From the IMG/VR virus record IMGVR_UViG_3300043540_000327: DNA of 17,701 nucleotides; one strand, 5' to 3'. The DNA is from a virus. Below are positions 977 to 12,462 of this stretch, piece after piece. The number at the start of each line of letters is the position of its first letter. The first letter of the stretch is position 1. Position numbers and translations under genes: made by a program. Below the pieces are notes generated by a model. That model worked only from the letters and a program-made list of their open reading frames with translations. It was not told where the DNA came from and made no database searches.

Positions 977-1810
977 ATGAGAACCATCCTCGTCTATACA
1001 CACCCATTCAATTTCACGTCCGGCGGCATTGTCGTGCTGCACAAGTTGTGTCATTTGCTCCGTCAAAAAGACCAGAACGCACGGCTATGGATGGTCGATG
1101 ACGACTGGACGACCTGGGCGACCTGGCCGGAGTATGATACCCCAATAGCGAACGGCAAAGTTGATCCTCGGGATTGCGTCGTCATCTACCCGGAGATCGT
1201 CAGCGGCAATATCCTTGAGGCCAAACACGCCGTTTGGTGGCTGCTGAATAAACCTGGATTTTGGGGAGGCACGTTTGAAGCCAAGCCCGAAGACTTGATC
1301 GTCACCTACTCGGATCATTTCTCGGCCGATTACCCCAACGCCGAACAATTGCGAGTCATTGAATGCTGGTTTGAATATTTTAGCCCCGACCCGACGATTG
1401 TACGCAAGGGTGGATGCTATGCCATGCGTAAGGGTGCCATCATGGGCAAGCAGCCAATTCCAGAAACGGACGGTCTGAAGCCGATTGTGGATTCGAGTTA
1501 TGATATAGCGTTCTTGCGAAACACGTTCCGTGAGTCGGAGGTATTTTACAGCTACGACTCCGCAACCTTCCTGTCCCTGCACGCCGCCCTGTGTGGATGT
1601 ACCAGCATCGTCATCCCGGATGAAGGTATGACTAAGGATCAATGGCTAAATAAGTTCCCACTCATGAAATATGGCGTTGCTTATGGCCTGGAGGACCGGG
1701 CCTGGTCCGAAACCACCAAGGATAAGGTGCGGGACCATCTGATGGAAGAAGAAGCGAAATGCCTGCTCACGGTTGACAACCTCATCGAGCGTATCAACAA
1801 CTTGACATAA
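977..1810 (+). CDS. Hypothetical protein, possibly a GT-B-like glycosyltransferase
   Basis: An ATG at 977 follows an AAAGGAG RBS (967-973), 9 nt after the acetyltransferase stop. The C-terminal segment ESEVFYSYDSATFLSLHAALCGCTSIVIP loosely resembles the EX7E/'EAmaxGxPvI' donor-binding motif of GT-B enzymes. It sits next to the aminotransferase/acetyltransferase pair. Confidence 0.5.
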   Translation: MRTILVYTHPFNFTSGGIVVLHKLCHLLRQKDQNARLWMVDDDWTTWATWPEYDTPIANGKVDPRDCVVIYPEIVSGNILEAKHAVWWLLNKPGFWGGTFEAKPEDLIVTYSDHFSADYPNAEQLRVIECWFEYFSPDPTIVRKGGCYAMRKGAIMGKQPIPETDGLKPIVDSSYDIAFLRNTFRESEVFYSYDSATFLSLHAALCGCTSIVIPDEGMTKDQWLNKFPLMKYGVAYGLEDRAWSETTKDKVRDHLMEEEAKCLLTVDNLIERINNLT

Positions 1811-1876
1811 AGGCACGTTTCTTGTTATCATCGTACCATTAGTTTTCTTCGCCTCCACTATTTGGAGAGCAGAATC

Positions 1877-2880
1877 GTGCCGACGTTCAAAATCATTTCC
1901 ATCGTCAAAGACGGCACCTACCCGCTACGTCTCTTGCCTGGCAATCCCGTCTTCGTCAACCGGCAGTGGCATCGGCTTGGCATTGGCGTCACCAATGCCA
2001 AGAACTTCCTGTGTACACGGATGCCGACGAACAAGGACCGTCTGACCGGCGCTCAGAAGTACGAGGGCTATTGCGCCATCTGCGAGGCGGCGATCTCGTG
2101 CTACAAAAAAGGCCAGGAGAGCGATTTCCGAAAGCTGAAAGCTTTTGAGCGGTCCTATTACTGCGCCATCAATCGTGACGAGCAGGACATCGGCGTTCAG
2201 CTTTTCACCTGCGGCAAGCAGATTCAGTCGATCATTTTATCGGCCTCGCTGGGTGACGCTTTCGCCAAGAAGCACCCCCTGGGTGATGTCTTTAACTATC
2301 ACACCGGCCGGGACTTCATACTCATCCGCAAAACAAATATCAGTGGTTTCCCCGATTACGGCGAGTCTTATTTCTCCCCGCCGTATCCGGCCGGCACCGG
2401 CCACGAAATTCAGCAATGGATGACGAACCTCATCGACCTCGACAGCATGTTCACGCCGCCTACGGCCGAAACGGTGCAGAAGGCCCTGCAAGAGTATTTC
2501 CACGTTCCGGCCAAGCCAAGACCATCAAGATTTCCGTCAAGCAGGAAGAAGGCGATGCCATTGCGGGCATTCGGATATATTCCAACCCGCATAGCATCTG
2601 GGACTCACCGCAGTGCGTCCTGGTTAGCCGGGAAGCGTTCTGCAACATGGTCGCTGACCGGGCCGACCGGGGCGTCTACTACCACGCCAACGGCTATTAT
2701 ATCATCCGGGCCGAAATTACCGACACCGGCGAGGTCTGGGCACGGGTCGTCCCCGAAGACCCCTGCTTGGAGGCCAGTCTCCAGGCGATCCAGAAGAAAT
2801 ACGAAGACACCAAGAAGGAACCGGAATACCGCATTTTCGAGAAGAAGATGCTGGATGCGTACCACCAGCGACCCGTATAA
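1877..2880 (+). CDS. Hypothetical gp32-like ssDNA-binding protein with a His/Cys3 zinc motif, apparently interrupted by a -1 frameshift near 2513-2521
   Basis: A GTG at 1877 lies 7 nt after a GGAGAG RBS (the track ORF begins at a TTG at 1862). Frame 2 reads protein-like text up to ..QEYFHVPAKP (about 2518). After that, protein-like text continues only in frame 1 (KTIKISVKQEEGDAIAGIRIYSNPHSIWDSPQCVLVSREAF...KKMLDAYHQRPV, stop 2878-2880). The frame-2 continuation to 3061 is Arg/Ser/Thr/Pro-rich junk. The switch falls at the short direct repeat gccaag|ccaag. The N-terminal segments LRLLPGNPVFVNRQWH and H-x13-C-x19-C-x2-C recall the T4 gp32 IRFLP...PFAILVNH region and its His/Cys3 zinc site. Confidence 0.5.
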
Positions 2881-3123
2881 TTGGATATGTACGAGTCAAG
2901 CTTTATCTACGGCAATAGCGATAACGCCAAGTGGCCGAAGACGGCCTGGCCTCGGGACGGTTTCCTGTTGTTCTGCGAGAAGCACGGCTTTCCCTACCGG
3001 GAAGGCCACAAGTGCCCCAAGTGCGAAGACAGAGGCATCAAGACGAATTATCGCAGCATAGACGAACCCTGGACGGCACCCGATGACCGACGAGGAATGG
3101 GAAGCACTGAAGAAGAAGTATAA
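2881..3123 (+). CDS. Hypothetical small zinc-ribbon protein carrying the YRSIDEPW motif
   Basis: ORF of 80 aa with a possible TTG start at 2881 or ATG at 2887. It contains C..HGFPYREGHKCPKCE followed by K-T-N-YRSIDEPW (3049-3072). It overlaps the next gene by 41 nt. Confidence 0.45.
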   Translation: MDMYESSFIYGNSDNAKWPKTAWPRDGFLLFCEKHGFPYREGHKCPKCEDRGIKTNYRSIDEPWTAPDDRRGMGSTEEEV

Positions 3124-3361
3124 CGTCCCGCCAGGCGAGGAAATGATCCCGATGGGCTGCGGCCCCCAAGACTGGCGGGTCGGCCGTGGCTACTTCGAGA
3201 TGTTCGAGCGATACAAGCAGCAGAATCCGGGCTTCCAGGAAAGCGTTGACCGGGTGCGGAAGAACCTGTTCAAGTGGCGGACCCCGCCGAAGCCTGAAGA
3301 GCCGAAGCCGGACCAAAAGTACCGGAGCATTGACGACGAGTGGGACAATTTTGGAGCTTAG
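3083..3361 (+). CDS. Hypothetical protein ending in KYRSIDDEW
   Basis: ORF of 92 aa. The C-terminus reads ...KPEEPKPDQKYRSIDDEWDNFGA, with the motif at 3320-3343. The first 100 aa of the 3186..4025 track ORF are an out-of-frame shadow of this gene. Confidence 0.55.
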   Translation: MTDEEWEALKKKYNVPPGEEMIPMGCGPQDWRVGRGYFEMFERYKQQNPGFQESVDRVRKNLFKWRTPPKPEEPKPDQKYRSIDDEWDNFGA

Positions 3362-3377
3362 TGCAATATATACCGAT

Positions 3378-4025
3378 ATGGAGATTCACGAAGTCGTCAA
3401 ACTGTTCGTCCAAGAGCTACAAATCGAACCGATCTACGAGCAAGAAGGTCGGCATTTCCAACTCTGGTGGTCGCCGCCGATGGACGACGGCCGCAAGCGC
3501 CACGGTCAAATCTGGCGGGTCATCAGCCAACTCTACAAGGACCAGCGGGTACTCCAGATCGGCTACCCCTGGCAGGGCAACGAGTTTCCCTCGGCCAAGG
3601 TGCTGGATTATACCGGCGAGCATGACGATGCGGATTATAAACTGAATCCGCAGAACATGCCTTGTATCAAAGACGGCAGTTTTGATCTGGTGCTTTGCAA
3701 CAGCATCTTGGAGCAGATGCCAAAGTTCTGGCTCGTTGCCCAGGAGATGTGCCGGGTGCTGGATAAGAACGGCGTCTTATGGGTGACGGCGCCGGCCGTC
3801 TGGCCGCACCACCCTGACGGCGAAAGCACCGAATACGGCGGCGACTATTGGCGATTTACCCACCGTGGCCTGGCCGAGTTGTTCGAGGAGCATTGCGACA
3901 AATTGGCGACTTGGTATATTCCGGCACAGGCCCCTTACGACAACCCGCAGTCGGGCTGGGGAGTTGTCTATGTGGGGAGGAAAAGAGATGAACAAAGTAA
4001 GACCATCGGTTTACCTGGAAGATAA
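3378..4025 (+). CDS. Class I SAM-dependent methyltransferase (type 11-like)
   Basis: An ATG at 3378 follows the previous stop at 3359-3361. The segment SFDLVLCNSILEQMP..CRVLDKNGVLWVTAP matches the post-I/II motifs of small SAM methyltransferases (FDLVxxxxVLEH...LKPGGxLxxT). The N-terminal 64 aa of the track ORF look out-of-frame. Confidence 0.6.
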   Translation: MEIHEVVKLFVQELQIEPIYEQEGRHFQLWWSPPMDDGRKRHGQIWRVISQLYKDQRVLQIGYPWQGNEFPSAKVLDYTGEHDDADYKLNPQNMPCIKDGSFDLVLCNSILEQMPKFWLVAQEMCRVLDKNGVLWVTAPAVWPHHPDGESTEYGGDYWRFTHRGLAELFEEHCDKLATWYIPAQAPYDNPQSGWGVVYVGRKRDEQSKTIGLPGR

Positions 4026-4506
4026 GTGCAAGACCTTCGAGACGCTACTCGACTATTTCTTGGCCGAGAAGGGGTCGTTCAACAAGACGGTCAACGAGAA
4101 ACTACTGGCTTTTCTCTACCAGATTGACTTCTGGGATTGGGAGATCGAGAACCTGATTTTCTCGTTCGACAACTTCGAGGAACGCTCCCAGGCGTGGCAG
4201 GGGTCGGCTAACAGCAACGTGAATGCGATCTGGCTGCGGCATGGTCTGCCCATCAAAAGCAACCTCGTCTCTTTTTGGAAGGACTACTCCAGTCGCTACT
4301 ATAAAGGCGAGAAGGTGGTGGCGCCGGTCAAGCACTTGAACAAGGTCATCGACAAATGGAACAAGTTGCTGGACCGCTGCGTGGACCGGGTATTCATGGA
4401 AGAGAAGACGATTCAGTCGGCCATCGAGATGAAGGCCCAGATATTGCCAAACCTGGACAAGTACAAGAAGAGCTTACGCCGAGAAACGGAGGGAGATGCT
4501 AGTTGA
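3988..4506 (+). CDS. Hypothetical protein
   Basis: An ATG at 3988 is preceded by GGGGAGGAAAAGAG. The text from MNKVRPSVYLEDK onward is protein-like, and this segment is more AT-rich than its neighbours. Confidence 0.5.
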   Translation: MNKVRPSVYLEDKCKTFETLLDYFLAEKGSFNKTVNEKLLAFLYQIDFWDWEIENLIFSFDNFEERSQAWQGSANSNVNAIWLRHGLPIKSNLVSFWKDYSSRYYKGEKVVAPVKHLNKVIDKWNKLLDRCVDRVFMEEKTIQSAIEMKAQILPNLDKYKKSLRRETEGDAS

Positions 4507-4777
4507 TTATGACGAATACTTCCAATTATGCAGGACGGCGAGCGTGCCGGTAGGTAGCATGGAGACACAACAAGTAATCGACGTATTGAAGGAAAAGTAC
4601 CCACACGCCTTCCGCATGGTGAAAGACGAACCTCACCTGGAGGTCGCTGTCGCCCTGAGCGGCACGACGTTGCCGCTGATGAACGATTGGGCACGTCGGA
4701 TGGGCGAGGGTGCGACCTTCGACCTTTTCCACAAGAGTCTATCAGAAGTCCTGATGCAGCAGGAAGGAGCGGCTTGA
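4496..4777 (+). CDS. Hypothetical protein
   Basis: ORF of 93 aa; GGAGGGAG lies immediately upstream of the ATG at 4496. Its stop overlaps the next start (TGATG). Confidence 0.45.
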   Translation: MLVDYDEYFQLCRTASVPVGSMETQQVIDVLKEKYPHAFRMVKDEPHLEVAVALSGTTLPLMNDWARRMGEGATFDLFHKSLSEVLMQQEGAA

Positions 4778-5310
4778 TGTCGAAGCTGATCGACTTTTAC
4801 CTGGAAGAAGGAACCGATACCGAGGGCAGAACCTTCACGGAGATTATGGCCTGGTCGGACGAGAAGTGGGAGTTCGGCCACGATTACATCCAGTGGATGT
4901 TCCCGCTCCAGGAAGAGAGCAACTTCAACCCGGACGCCCCGTTGTTGACGGAAGAGGACATCAGGCTCTTTCATGCCAACCCGGACCTGCGAAACAACAT
5001 GGTCCTGGCCTTTCACCGCTTCGTGAAGTTTCTGGGTCTGAAGTGGCTGATCGACCCGATGATCCAGGACGCTACGGTCATCAAGGCCGGCAACTTTCAG
5101 GAACGGCGGTGGATGATTTGGGACAACCCGAACCACAACTGGTTCCGCATCAGTCGTGTTCTCAAGTCCTTGAAGCTTCTGGGTTTGAAAGAATACGCCG
5201 ACGATCTATTTGCCTGCTTGAAGCGATTGCACGAGGACGAGGGCCTGGTGACTGGCAACTCGTTTCGCTATTGGCAAGAAGCGGTTGCACTTCCGACGAA
5301 ATCAGAGTAG
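4777..5310 (+). CDS. OGFr_N-like (opioid growth factor receptor conserved region family) protein
   Basis: An ATG at 4777 follows GGAAGGAGCGG. The N-terminal segment IDFYLEEGTDTEGRTFTEIMAWSDEKWEFGHDYIQWMFPL matches the characteristic start of bacterial OGFr_N-family proteins (..FY.G...D..GR.L.EI..W.D..LE..HDYIQWLFPL). Confidence 0.5.
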   Translation: MSKLIDFYLEEGTDTEGRTFTEIMAWSDEKWEFGHDYIQWMFPLQEESNFNPDAPLLTEEDIRLFHANPDLRNNMVLAFHRFVKFLGLKWLIDPMIQDATVIKAGNFQERRWMIWDNPNHNWFRISRVLKSLKLLGLKEYADDLFACLKRLHEDEGLVTGNSFRYWQEAVALPTKSE

Positions 5311-5350
5311 GATATGAAGACTGAAGACTGTAGACAGCGCCCTTGCCGAC

Positions 5351-5686
5351 ATGAAGGAGCTTGTGAACCAGATCGCCCAGAAGTCCGAGGTTGACGGGGC
5401 GTTCTTTCGTGCCCACTTCCTGGGTTGCGTGGAACTGACGAAGCTAGGCGACGAGTACCGAAGCGTCATGAAGGCGTTAATCGAGTGCCCCGTGTGCCAG
5501 CGACTCTGCCCAGGCGTCAATGAACTGCACGGTCATCTGGTCATGCACTGGCCCATTGCTCACGTTCGGGATTACCTGGACTGGTTGGAGAACCAGCGTG
5601 AGGACGTGCGGCGGGAGATGAAACAGCTTGCGGATTCATTGCAAGAAAGCATGGGCCTGTTGATAAATAAGAACACGCCGGCATGA
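5351..5686 (+). CDS. Hypothetical protein with a single C2H2-type zinc finger
   Basis: ORF of 111 aa. CPVCQRLCPGVNELHGHLVMH has the C-x2-C-x12-H-x3-H spacing, with a Leu three residues before the first His. The stop (5684-5686) lies inside the 5' end of tRNA-Thr. Confidence 0.5.
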   Translation: MKELVNQIAQKSEVDGAFFRAHFLGCVELTKLGDEYRSVMKALIECPVCQRLCPGVNELHGHLVMHWPIAHVRDYLDWLENQREDVRREMKQLADSLQESMGLLINKNTPA

Positions 5687-5747
5687 TGTAATGGTAGCCT
5701 GACTGCCTTGTAAGCAGTATGTCCGGGTTCGATTCCTGGTGCCGGCT
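5677..5747 (+). tRNA. tRNA-Thr (anticodon UGU)
   Basis: Hand-folded cloverleaf. Acceptor stem gccggca/tgccggc is 7 perfect bp. The D-arm is atgt-aatggta-gcct with one mismatch. The anticodon stem actgc/gcagt has loop cttgtaa, giving anticodon TGT with U33 and A37. The variable loop is 4 nt. The T-arm is ccggg-ttcgatt-cctgg. Discriminator is T and no CCA is encoded. Confidence 0.7.
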
Positions 5748-5748
5748 C

Positions 5749-6102
5749 TTAACTAGCACTAACAATAGGACCACCAGCGGGTGGCGTTGCGGAAACGGGT
5801 GGTTCGATTTTAACCATCCACCACTTGACGGGCGGCGTAAGTTCGTCCCACGGTCGGGCGTAGTTCAGTTGAATCACACCAGCCCCGGTGATGAGGAAAA
5901 CGAAGTGGATACTGACGGGGGCGCCGGGCTTGGCGGGGTCTTCTCCCTCATGGCGAATGTACTGAAGCAATCCGGCGGTCGTATCTACAGCCTGCCAGAT
6001 AAAACCGCTGCCGGCTGCCCAGGGCAGGGTGACGGTTAAGCGATCTCCAGAAACGGCATGGACGGTTTGGCCGTTATTCTCATTGGTGACTTTAATATCC
6101 AT
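5749..6102 (-). CDS. Chagasin-family (MEROPS I42) cysteine-peptidase inhibitor homologue
   Basis: The 117-aa - strand protein begins MDIKVTNENNGQTVHAVSGDRLTVTLPWAAGSGFIWQ. Compare T. cruzi chagasin MSHKVTKAHNGATLTVAVGELVEIQLPSNPTTGFAW. PGAPVSIHFVF aligns with LGAGGTEHFHV, and GAGVIQLNYARPWDE aligns with AGTHAVNLTYMRPW (the RPW loop L6). It has no signal peptide, like chagasin itself. The gene fills the gap between the two tRNA genes exactly. Confidence 0.7.
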   Translation of the reverse strand: MDIKVTNENNGQTVHAVSGDRLTVTLPWAAGSGFIWQAVDTTAGLLQYIRHEGEDPAKPGAPVSIHFVFLITGAGVIQLNYARPWDELTPPVKWWMVKIEPPVSATPPAGGPIVSAS

Positions 6103-6131
6103 GAGAATATATAGGGGTCAGGAAGAAAATT

Positions 6132-6204
6132 GCGGGTGTAGCTCAGTGGCTAGAGCGCCACGTTGCCAACGTGGATGTCGTGGGTTCAAATCCCATCACC
6201 CGCT
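6132..6204 (+). tRNA. tRNA-Gly (anticodon GCC)
   Basis: Canonical cloverleaf. Acceptor gcgggtg/cacccgc. D-arm gctc-agtggcta-gagc. Anticodon stem ccacg/cgtgg with loop ttgccaa, giving GCC. T-arm gtggg-ttcaaat-cccat. Discriminator is T and no CCA is encoded. Confidence 0.85.
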
Positions 6205-6258
6205 CTTGAGGATTTACGGTGCCCCGGAACTTGTTCGAGGACCATAACGACTTCAGGG

Positions 6259-6450
6259 ATGTTATCACTGGCCCAACTTCGGGATGCCCTTCAGAACGGT
6301 CGTGTGTTCAAGCGAGGCACCCCGATCAAGGTGACGATACCACAGATGGCGATGCCGAATATCGTTTTCGCTGATGAGGTCCACGAAACGGTGGTGCCGA
6401 TCAAACCCAAGAAGAAATATCGCTCGATTGACGATCCCTGGGAGGCGTGA
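6259..6450 (+). CDS. Hypothetical small protein ending in KKYRSIDDPWEA
   Basis: This ATG is the first in-frame start downstream of the tRNA. The 63-aa product ends ...VVPIKPKKKYRSIDDPWEA, with the motif at 6418-6441. Its stop overlaps the next start (TGATG). The upstream part of the 6163 track ORF overlaps tRNA-Gly and is rejected. Confidence 0.5.
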   Translation: MLSLAQLRDALQNGRVFKRGTPIKVTIPQMAMPNIVFADEVHETVVPIKPKKKYRSIDDPWEA

Positions 6451-6719
6451 TGAAGTTCTGGGGCCAGCTACAGCCGACGACTCGGTATATGCTCATTAAC
6501 CTGGCCACGGCAATGGTCACGCTGACCTGCAACGACTACTGGCACGAGTATGCCTGGTTATGGTTCTCCCTCCAAATGTGTGTGACGTTGCCCACGGCGA
6601 TCTATTACACCTGGGTGACGAACAAGGAGCAACATGAGTCTTCTAACGACTTTCGAGGAACTGCCCCTGGGGACCAAGTTCGTCCTCTTGAACCAGGACA
6701 GTGGGACTATCAAATATGA
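6450..6719 (+). CDS. Small hydrophobic (about 2 TM) membrane protein
   Basis: A GGGAGG RBS lies 4 nt upstream of the ATG at 6450. MLINLATAMVTLTC..AWLWFSLQMCVTLPTAIYYTWV form two hydrophobic helices. The 3' tail overlaps the next gene and may not all be coding. Confidence 0.45.
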   Translation: MKFWGQLQPTTRYMLINLATAMVTLTCNDYWHEYAWLWFSLQMCVTLPTAIYYTWVTNKEQHESSNDFRGTAPGDQVRPLEPGQWDYQI

Positions 6720-10253: not shown

Positions 10254-10728
10254 CCAGGCTGCGCTGCGTGCCGCCAAGAAGCTGGGCATCGCCACCGGCG
10301 GCTGGGTGCCCAAGGGCTGTCGCACCGAGGACGGTCCTCGCCCGGACCTGATTGACGAGTTCGGCCTGACCGAAACCGAAACCGACGACTACGTTGAACG
10401 GACCCATCTGAATATCGAGCATTCGGACGGTACGATCCGGTTCGCCGCCGATTTCAACTCGATTGGCGAGCGATGCACGCTGCGGGGCATTCGCAAATAT
10501 AAGAAGCCCTATTTCGATTTCGATATCAGCAAGCATTATCGCTTTGCCGACCTCCTCCGGTGGGTCTGGGATAACAACATCCACGTCCTGAACGTCGCCG
10601 GCAACCGGGAGAGTAAGCACCCCGGCATCGGCAAAACGGTGGAAGAATTCCTCATCCCTTTTTTCACGCAGCTTATTCCCCTGGAACGGGCGGAAGCGTT
10701 GCTGCGCAAAGTCCTGGAGAATGACTGA
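10195..10728 (+). CDS. SLOG-superfamily 'putative molybdenum-cofactor carrier' (PF12694-like) protein
   Basis: VISGAQTGADQAALRAAKKLGIATGGWVPKGCRTEDGPRP...ETETDDYVERTHLNIEHSDGTIRF matches the remembered family consensus (GGQTGvDraALdaA..gi.hGGWCPkGR.AEDG.i...ETpsadYaeRTewNvrDSDgTL). GGGAGAAG RBS. The stop overlaps the SerRS-like start. Confidence 0.6.
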   Translation: METKDWTLTKVISGAQTGADQAALRAAKKLGIATGGWVPKGCRTEDGPRPDLIDEFGLTETETDDYVERTHLNIEHSDGTIRFAADFNSIGERCTLRGIRKYKKPYFDFDISKHYRFADLLRWVWDNNIHVLNVAGNRESKHPGIGKTVEEFLIPFFTQLIPLERAEALLRKVLEND

Positions 10729-11516
10729 TGATCGACTTTGAGCGTGGTGCGAAGACGACCGGCTCCAAGTTCTACTTCCTGACCGGCCAGAAGGCCGTCA
10801 TGGAGTGGAACCTTATCAACTTCATGATCTCCCACCATCGGCACAACGGCTACGAGTTCGTGATCTCACCCTACCTCATTAACAAGCAGGTGGGTGAGTG
10901 GGCCGGCATCAACAAGCAGGTGGGTGAGTGGGCCGGCATCCTGCCTCGCTTTGAGGGCGACTATTACCAGACCCAGGAAGGACTCATGCTCATTCCCACG
11001 GCCGAGACGCCGCTCGTGGGAATGCACGCCGACGAAATCTTCCAGGAGGAAGAACTGCCGAAGCGTTATGTCGCCTTCTCGCCGTGCTTCCGCAAGGAGG
11101 CCGGTGCTTATGGTGCCAAGGACAAGGGCTATAAGCGGGTCCACCAGTTCCACAAGATCGAGTTGTTCGTGATTTGCGAACCCACGGCGAGCGAGTTTCA
11201 GCACAACCAGATGGTTGGCGATGTGGTCAGCCTGATGAAGAAGCTCAAGGTCGAATATCGCCTGCGGGAATTGCCGCCCGAGGAGCGTAGCCCGGTATCG
11301 GCCAGGACCATCGACGTGGAGGTCAAGGTCGGGGACGAGTGGCTGGAAGTGTCATCCATTTCCAACACGCTTGATACCCAGAGCAAGCCGGCACAGATTC
11401 GCTTCAAGCCGAAGTGCGGCGGCAAGAACATCAAGTGCCATTTGCTCAACGGCTCCGGCGTAGCCTTGCCCCGGCTGATGTTGGCCCTGGCCGACCGTAT
11501 GGCAGAGTGGAAATGA
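10728..11516 (+). CDS. Seryl-tRNA-synthetase catalytic-core homologue lacking the N-terminal tRNA-binding arm (SerRS-like, amino-acid:carrier-protein-ligase-like architecture)
   Basis: It aligns by eye with E. coli SerRS from about residue 105 to the end of motif 3. [20 protein letters not shown] matches [29 protein letters not shown] is motif 1. [21 protein letters not shown] is motif 2 (fRsE). [15 protein letters not shown] is motif 3. There is no coiled-coil arm and no C-terminal tail. It contains an in-frame 10-aa duplication. Confidence 0.8.
   Translation: [262 protein letters not shown]
10881..10940 (+). repeat. Perfect 2 x 30-bp tandem duplication inside the SerRS-like gene
   Basis: aacaagcaggtgggtgagtgggccggcatc occurs twice without a mismatch and duplicates [10 protein letters not shown] in frame. 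Confidence 0.9.
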
Positions 11517-12396: not shown

Positions 12397-12462
12397 CTTT
12401 TGTGCTTTACAATTGGCACATTCACATTGGCGGAAGACCCACAACATAACTCTGAGGGATTT

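Follow-up and report, generated by a model that had tools for sequence, protein, structure and literature searches.

A YRSID[DE]xW tail shared by dissimilar small proteins in a clade of huge phages

The viral record IMGVR_UViG_3300043540_000327 is a complete JGI metagenome contig of 17,701 bp with phage character (the window hereafter denotes this whole stretch) and is the longest contig carrying P0002 and P0041. It encodes three small proteins that share, at or near their C-termini, a short peptide, YRSID[DE]xW, preceded by a lysine-containing linker and referred to here as the tail. A six-frame scan of the 17,701 nt with the pattern YRS[ILVM]D[DE].W returns three matches, all on the + strand: YRSIDEPW at 3049-3072, YRSIDDEW at 3320-3343, and YRSIDDPW at 6418-6441. 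With their linkers, the copies read K-T-N-YRSIDEPW (3040..3072), K-YRSIDDEW (3317..3343), and KKK-YRSIDDPW (6409..6441), and they lie 16, 5, and 2 residues, respectively, before the stop codons of the genes at 2887-3123, 3083-3361, and 6259-6450.

Tail gene 1 (2887..3123, + strand) encodes 78 aa, in which a Zn-ribbon-like CPKC is followed by the motif and then by a 16-aa extension that overlaps the start of tail gene 2. The same gene is called in the independent Logan contig L001, and its product is identical to P0010. Tail gene 2 (3083..3361, + strand) encodes 92 aa, corresponds to P0014, and ends in ..PKPDQKYRSIDDEWDNFGA*. Tail gene 3 (6259..6450, + strand) encodes 63 aa, is identical to P0002, and ends in ..PIKPKKKYRSIDDPWEA*. 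The motif sites of the original prediction stand; the third gene, however, begins at 6259 and not at 6163, 3' of a tRNA-Gly (6132-6205). None of the three genes matches a Pfam or PHROG family, and they share no similarity with one another outside the tail. Their payloads, the parts other than linker and tail, comprise one Zn-ribbon-like protein and two without a family match. The tail had been expected to persist in homologues, with the gene 1 motif close to the C-terminus in orthologues, and this was found. P0013, an orthologue of gene 1, retains both the tail (IYRSIDEPWTAPNDGRGMG) and the 16-aa extension, and gene 3 has tailed orthologues in P0005 (89% identity) and L175 (51% identity, ..KKRKYRSIDDDWEV*).

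The third copy also illustrates how tail genes are joined to their neighbors. At the junction TGGGAGGCGTGATG (6439..6452, + strand), read directly from the sequence, the codons for Trp-Glu in the tail create a Shine-Dalgarno-like GGGAGG, and the stop TGA of gene 3 overlaps the start of the next gene (GTG 6447, ATG 6450). This copy (tgGGAGGcgtgATGa) exemplifies a coupled layout that is usual in most related copies, where the tail is followed by 2-4 codons and an ATGA start/stop overlap, and where TGG-GAR provides a Shine-Dalgarno-like GGGAG.

Selection on the tail acts at the peptide level. The back-translated pattern TAYMGNWSNATHGAYGANNNNTGG matches the window three times, against 0.00 matches expected from 200 dinucleotide-preserving shuffles, in agreement with the original prediction of one peptide shared by three dissimilar small proteins. 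That prediction had also held that the codons differ between copies and that the conservation is not a DNA repeat, and the sequence bears it out on both counts. Arg-Ser-Ile is encoded by CGC AGC ATA, CGG AGC ATT, and CGC TCG ATT in the three copies, whose DNA is similar over at most 17 nt at 76% identity. Across the 36 distinct open reading frame (ORF) ends described below, Arg is encoded by both CGN and AGR and Ser by both AGY and TCN, third codon positions are variable, and the flanks show no nucleotide similarity. The use of both Ser codon families is strong evidence for selection on the peptide. Coincidence, or a repeat or mobile element at the DNA level that only seems conserved when translated, has virtually no probability as an explanation. 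The 17-nt similarity is all that speaks for it, while the zero expectation in shuffles, the free synonymous variation that includes AGY and TCN, and the dissimilar flanks speak against it, and the codon data already refute it; nucleotide conservation beyond coding constraint is not seen.

The tail recurs well beyond the window. A scan of IMG/VR with a degenerate DNA pattern (AARTAYMGNWSNATHGAYGANNNNTGG) matched 19 places, nine of them on a single contig of 532,729 bp. The peptide (K)n-YRSIDDPW-E is in frame at 16 of the 19 places, on dissimilar small ORFs, and in all but one of these it lies within a few residues of the stop codon. When the same pattern was applied to 596 Gb of bacterial and archaeal genomes, 44 matches were obtained versus approximately 50 estimated beforehand to arise by chance, and the in-frame matches fall inside ordinary enzymes, mostly distant from the stop. 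True tails in this set are confined to two phage-like regions, L135 and L139, binned with Acidobacteriota metagenome-assembled genomes (MAGs). Thus, the prokaryotic matches are close to chance, and the ligand set is phage-only. Scanning of metagenomes revealed further carriers, including the L175 orthologue of gene 3, and profile searches added approximately 30 carrier proteins of 60-103 aa. A 46-aa tail profile searched against 5.8 billion proteins retrieved 13 proteins from 29 candidates; an exhaustive search was dominated by a family of major capsid protein (MCP) fragments, so that other kinds of carrier are under-counted.

The pooled phage-like loci contain 36 distinct tail-bearing ORF ends. 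This agrees with the view of the peptide as a portable tag carried by unrelated proteins, with further examples in related contigs. In 29 of the 36, no more than 6 residues separate the end of the motif from the stop, and 35 have it within 19 aa of the C-terminus. The spacing from motif to stop ranges from 1 to 19 residues, the exception being L007 with 90. The tail consensus is [KR]n-[YFHW]-R-S-[IV]-D-[DE]-P-[WF]-E, or KKKYRSIDDPWE in sequence form; the variants widen it to [KR]n-[YFHW]-R-S-[IV]-D/T-[DE]-x-[WF]-[EG] and include HRSITDEWEVS, FRSIDDPWET, YRSVDDPWET, and FRSINEPWEPS. Shorter, degenerate ends occur on further genes of the same genome (..WRSIDDE*, ..FRSIDDE*, and ..KKKKHRSIDDE*). 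Within the family of MCP C-terminal fragments, Arg is invariant, Ser, Ile, and Trp are nearly invariant, and the linker varies freely. The motif was found neither in the PDB, nor in 50,697 GenBank phage records, nor in the searchable full-text literature. The tail is sharply defined, clade-specific, and previously unreported.

The carriers belong to very large genomes. The 532,729-bp IMG/VR contig shares identical genes with a 673,178-bp ENA scaffold, and other carrier contigs measure 669,797 bp, 933 kb, 346 kb, and 160 kb, alongside smaller fragments. Carrier genomes encode T4-type head genes, namely a Gp23 MCP, a Peptidase_S77 prohead protease, and a scaffold (L094, the 669,797-bp contig, and L223); the gp23-type MCP and S77 protease are absent from the 17.7-kb window itself. 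Only a small clade of huge phages with T4-type heads has the tail, and the window, 17.7 kb in length, is a fragment from one of these phages. One carrier locus, L135, is the 933,350-bp contig CAVSYW010000005.1 of an 'Acidobacteriaceae' MAG. It holds a phage block like that of the 669-kb and 77-kb contigs, with tail genes, a C39 peptidase, a tail-tube-like gene, and a LAGLIDADG gene, and its MCP C-fragment and the corresponding tail are in different frames. This contig represents either a prophage, a mis-binned region, or a phage genome far above any described.

Many carriers are short copies of segments of conserved phage proteins. Copies of the MCP N-region (Pfam Gp23 positions 3-62) are found in L016/L021 and P0037, and a copy of its middle (Gp23 positions 206-258) is found in L005 ORF 1. 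Its last ~60 residues (LMGYKG..GYFYAPYIPLTQTPVVLDP..GILTRYGKKLL) form a family (A5) whose alignment comprises 22 representatives of clusters at 50% identity. Additional payloads correspond to the C-terminal repeat, WPxLxNPYVP, of a 645-672-aa portal-like protein (L002, L017, L135, and L223), to the prohead-protease domain (L018), and to the middle of the gp32-type single-stranded DNA-binding protein (SSB) in L158 and in L007, the latter by a weak Pfam match (E 0.013). Only families with good profiles are recognizable among the payloads, and head proteins and gp32 are possibly over-represented for that reason. When L018 (- strand, motif 3045-3068) is aligned with the protease at L094 8214-8900, ELDHP is replaced by ELGPV and GISSRG by GFKMVG. 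The catalytic His and Ser are lost, and, judged by this alignment, the L018 carrier is a dead protease copy.

The contig of L094 also encodes an intact 478-aa MCP, the protease, and the scaffold, which indicates that the payload genes are extra mini-genes and not exons of split genes. A capsid gene split by introns, inteins, or ribosome hopping was rejected in view of this intact MCP and of the scattering of Gp23 fragments among unrelated genes. The tail is likewise not a diverged MCP C-terminus (AKFYARMSIANFVI): P0028, P0018, and P0033 keep an MCP-type end, which is then followed by linker and tail. To our knowledge, such mini-genes, conserved and copied from parts of the capsid, portal, protease, and SSB genes, have not been reported before. 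At L148, a 65-aa ORF without a tail (1197-1394) copies the MCP N-terminal propeptide (SKRFLNEAKECSEKWAKLGLLE..VLLEGQRLQNE) and lies approximately 500 bp upstream of an MCP C-fragment-plus-tail gene. This arrangement suggests that a decayed or reorganized second MCP copy was the source of the mini-genes. Elsewhere, carriers at L012 and L013 on the 532-kb contig start with a hydrophobic stretch resembling a transmembrane segment, behind which lies a zinc-ribbon-like CxxC..CxxC motif; tails can thus sit on putatively membrane-anchored proteins as well.

Tail genes often form tandem, translationally coupled arrays. In three genomes with conserved synteny, two or three tail genes follow the MCP gene at a distance of 4-7 kb: first a portal-repeat fragment with tail, then an MCP C-fragment with tail, and in some cases a third tail gene. 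Past the pair, after another 1.1-1.7 kb, three genomes have a stand-alone Peptidase_C39 gene. The motif is not always C-terminal. At L145 16274-16756, it is at the N-terminus of an MCP-derived paralogue (BLASTP 4e-21 to MCP residues 307-415), and at L007 2644-3009 it lies near the N-terminus. Because the tail occupies either terminus, a free C-terminal carboxylate is not needed. An AlphaFold2 model of the MCP-C-fragment family has no secondary structure (predicted TM-score, pTM, 0.20), and its confidence peaks in the 10-residue block that holds the tail. This result suits an extended peptide that folds upon binding, and in such modeling the carriers look like linear peptides that would fold on a partner.

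The explanation we favor, at roughly even chances, is that the tail is a portable motif through which proteins dock to one common, phage-specific receptor. The lysine-rich linker and tail would together form a handle at one terminus, mostly the C-terminal one, on small proteins that are largely unstructured. The tail would bind a conserved, phage-specific receptor as an extended strand plus a turn, and it would bring very different payload peptides to the same place. Receptor binding is what we infer from the sequence pattern. Since no host protein has the tail, mimicry of a host ligand is unlikely, and the receptor is probably phage-encoded or a host protein that is bound non-natively. A small TPR protein of 181 aa in the window (16000-16545) is a candidate receptor, TPR domains being classic receptors of terminal peptides.

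Within this docking model, the receptor we favor is the assembling prohead or its scaffold core, although this identification is more doubtful than not. The tail would then be a functional counterpart of the T4 capsid targeting sequence (CTS), and tail genes would encode packaged or assembly-associated proteins. Among phages whose heads are of this type, the nearest precedent is the CTS: the internal proteins, a 'highly diverse set', have nothing in common but this ~10-residue peptide (PMC3012670). The likeness between the two systems lies in gp23/gp21-type heads, in small and diverse proteins (IPI, IPII, IPIII, and Alt in T4), and in a short shared peptide that leads to a scaffold core. The tail-bearing contigs encode the gp23-type MCP, S77 protease, and scaffold that such a system involves, which the window lacks. 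Additional support comes from the tail-gene pair or trio 4-7 kb downstream of the MCP gene in three genomes and from payloads that include MCP pieces, the portal C-terminal repeat, and a catalytically dead protease domain.

Several observations weigh against placing the receptor in the prohead. In these phages, the tail is missing from the true protease, scaffold, MCP, and portal-like proteins. Other arrays adjoin replication genes, namely gp32 in the window and PolA and DnaB in L145. Apart from the query locus, 80 other gp23-type MCP loci (796 kb) contain no tail, so the tail is no general partner of this capsid type. The CTS differs from the tail in sequence and is N-terminal, whereas 35 of the 36 tails lie near the C-terminus, usually after a lysine run. 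The CTS of T4 reads MKTYQEFIAE and is removed by gp21 after Glu. Both peptides contain Lys, Tyr, and an Ile-x-acidic triplet; however, the Ile-x-Asp of the tail only loosely resembles the gp21 rule (L/I)-x-Glu, the tail has an invariant Arg-Ser and Trp, and its packaging and cleavage are putative. In addition, the T4 internal proteins include no known copies of head-protein fragments, unlike many of the payloads here. Finally, the Trp-Glu codons double as the ribosome-binding site of the next gene, and the conservation at the 3' end of the tail could be partly nucleotide-level.

A rather unlikely extension of docking would make each tail gene a two-part linear adaptor that captures binders of phage segments. 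The bait would be a copy of a segment of the phage's own MCP, portal, dead prohead protease, or gp32, the lysine-rich region a linker, and the tail a handle. Whatever the bait catches would then be handed to a single effector or compartment encoded by the phage. The targets might be host abortive-infection sensors that recognize capsid, portal, protease, or SSB, or else the machinery with which competing phages assemble; if true, this would amount to a modular decoy-and-dispose system. We know of no such system described in phages. No precedent was found for the association of mini-copies with a shared tail, and this association supports the adaptor idea.

Other explanations give the tail a different task. 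As a signal that a protease recognizes or processes, it could be a degron timing the loss of early proteins or a follower peptide cleaved by the nearby C39-type cysteine peptidase; this is unlikely, and a similarly low probability applies to the logic of ribosomally synthesized and post-translationally modified peptides (RiPPs), in which one recognition peptide serves many cores. The stand-alone C39 gene in three genomes, the tandem arrays of small tail ORFs, the chagasin-type cysteine-peptidase inhibitor of the window, and the lysine run beside the motif, which resembles a composite degron, are in keeping with such a signal. RiPP precursors such as the prochlorosins also consist of many small tandem genes with one conserved recognition sequence and a hypervariable rest, and a C39-type peptidase is nearby in three genomes here, a recurrent neighbor that leaves the protease explanation some weight. 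However, no C39 gene lies near the arrays of the window or L145. The tail is a short C-terminal follower without a double-glycine site, no modification enzymes were identified, and payloads that copy capsid, portal, and SSB segments are unlike RiPP cores. The degron named in the original prediction is weakened because the motif also occurs away from a free C-terminus (L145 and L007); the N-terminal copies and variable distance to the C-terminus argue against ClpX-type end recognition, and the variable extensions after Trp differ from the free end and fixed last residue of ssrA/ClpX degrons. Quite unlikely, too, is a replisome motif that binds the gp32 SSB, sliding clamp, or helicase. It would account for the position of tail genes 1 and 2 directly downstream of gp32, for the L145 array that follows PolA, NUDIX, and DnaB, and for the two carriers derived from the gp32 middle (L158 and, weakly, L007). 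The S-I-D-D-P-W spacing is like that of the T4 clamp tail S-L-D-F-L-F, and hub-binding tails in general (the gp45-binding tails of gp43, gp33, and gp55, and the bacterial SSB tail DDDIPF) are short terminal peptides by which unrelated proteins meet a single hub. In contrast, PolA (441 aa) and DnaB (516 aa), which adjoin the L145 array, end without a tail, which weakens the clamp-type tail proposed originally; a polymerase ending in the tail, as a clamp hub predicts, was not seen there. Most identifiable payloads are head proteins and few are replication proteins, other arrays lie in the structural region, and no host protein has the motif. Clamp and SSB tails depend strictly on the extreme C-terminus, whereas the motif here has 1-19 residues behind it and does not need a free C-terminus.

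The coupled layout raises the alternative that the tail acts in cis as a nascent peptide, with ribosome stalling or slow termination leading to re-initiation on the overlapping gene, and that the proteins themselves are mere carriers; both parts are judged very unlikely. In most copies, 2-4 codons and an ATGA overlap follow the tail, TGG-GAR forms the Shine-Dalgarno-like GGGAG, and TnaC and the T4 gene 60 nascent peptide are precedents for action at stop codons. Yet anything from 1 to 19 residues, and 90 in L007, separates the motif from the stop, unlike the fixed spacing of TnaC-type arrest, and N-terminal copies exist. Several copies have no closely coupled downstream gene (L139, L003, and L017 763-1017), and even copies with nothing downstream retain Trp or have Phe in its place. 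The payload sequences are conserved over deep divergence, which indicates that the proteins matter. Least favored among these, and most unlikely, is the original proposal that the tail is a cargo tag that docks proteins inside or onto a phage-made vault particle. The window does encode a genuine major vault protein (MVP) homologue, as had been claimed (12460..15207, + strand; Pfam MVP_shoulder 3.5e-24, Vault_3), and it thus shares the window with tail genes. A related 669-kb phage contig (L147; 669,302 bp and distinct from the tail-bearing contig of 669,797 bp) encodes an MVP too, and shells generally need cargo signals. However, a profile-based scan of IMG/VR found 179 MVP loci, and none of the best 80 of these (contigs of 60-470 kb) is among the tail-bearing contigs. 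The 22.7 kb around the L147 MVP contain no tail, and no MVP was found near any other tail array. Tag and MVP do not co-occur in the viral contigs examined. Moreover, eukaryotic vaults recruit cargo through a folded domain of ~160 aa, the INT domain of VPARP that binds MVP, and not through a short peptide; the likeness to vault cargo recruitment is the presence of an MVP shell gene in the window. MVP as the tail receptor is not supported, and the partner is probably another protein.

Encapsulin cargo-loading peptides, also named in the original prediction, are short, usually C-terminal, extended peptides by which unrelated cargo proteins attach to the inner face of an HK97-fold shell. Their consensus is Gly/Ser/Leu-rich and differs from that of the tail, no Linocin_M18 Pfam match was found among 30 window ORFs, and encapsulins have one to three carriers, which are enzymes, while the tail has many non-enzyme carriers per genome. 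The coat-binding tails of herpesviruses and HK97-like phages likewise involve a shared C-terminal peptide, which draws both scaffold and protease into the procapsid, and the L018 carrier is protease-like; however, the true protease and scaffold of these phages lack the tail, and L018 has lost its catalytic residues. Likenesses to eukaryotic YxxPhi/DPW sorting signals and to the type VII YxxxD/E signal were dropped, as these motifs are too short and the gene overlaps, Shine-Dalgarno sequences, and tRNAs point to a bacterial host. As far as sequence and position can tell, the tail is functionally like known address peptides but departs from each of them in both respects, and it is filed as a member of none.

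Huge phages encode hundreds of small genes that escape annotation, and the tail offers a direct experimental handle on some of them. It is present on dozens of proteins and nearly invariant across deeply diverged genomes, with true tails absent outside phages (596 Gb), and pinpointing its hub could give a whole class of dark-matter genes a common destination. Should the prohead prove to be that hub, megaphages would have their first defined packaging signal, which would also be a ready-made tag for the loading of foreign proteins. If the tail genes pair a bait with a handle, they would represent a new modular strategy in phage-host or phage-phage conflict.

Other features of the window provide context for the tail genes. 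MVP homologues are common in large viral contigs, and MVP seems to be a recurrent jumbo-phage gene. Approximately 6000 homologues of the window MVP were found, mostly in Myxococcota MAGs at 50-59% identity, and viral homologues occur on contigs of 60-470 kb at 35-49% identity (L216-L304). Searches of IMG/VR with single-protein seeds found no close relatives of the window MVP and gp32. The gp32-type SSB (1862..2880, + strand; PF08804, 7.4e-09) lies directly upstream of tail gene 1, and its reading frame is broken at 2505-2520 (near 2509-2518) by a 5-nt tandem duplication, GCCAA GCCAA. Removal of one copy joins 1862-~2510 with 2519-2880 in frame (..HVPAKTIKISVKQEEGD..) and gives a gp32 of ~334 aa. 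The separately assembled Logan contig L001 has identical frames, so the break is a real frameshift or pseudogene, or a programmed slippage site.

A sigma-70-type promoter (TTGACA, 17 nt, TATCAT) lies 5' of gp32 (window 1780-1862) and of PolA (L145 ~5100-5193). The T4 late promoter TATAAATA is absent upstream of the tail genes and essentially absent from the loci examined, which is uninformative on tail-gene timing. A chagasin-family cysteine-peptidase inhibitor (5749-6102, - strand; Pfam I42, 1.3e-08) is encoded between tRNA-Thr and tRNA-Gly, and C39 (clan CA) peptidases stand alone near tail genes in genomes related to the window. In addition to gp32, three tRNAs, and the TPR protein, the window encodes a methyltransferase, an OGFr_N protein, a cpYpsA SLOG protein, a class II aminoacyl-tRNA synthetase (aaRS) core, an anticodon-binding domain, and a dual-specificity phosphatase. 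The class II aaRS-core gene (10728-11516) contains a 30-nt tandem duplication at 10877-10940 (2.1 copies, 97% matches), which repeats the peptide INKQVGEWAG inside a seryl/threonyl-type synthetase core fragment.

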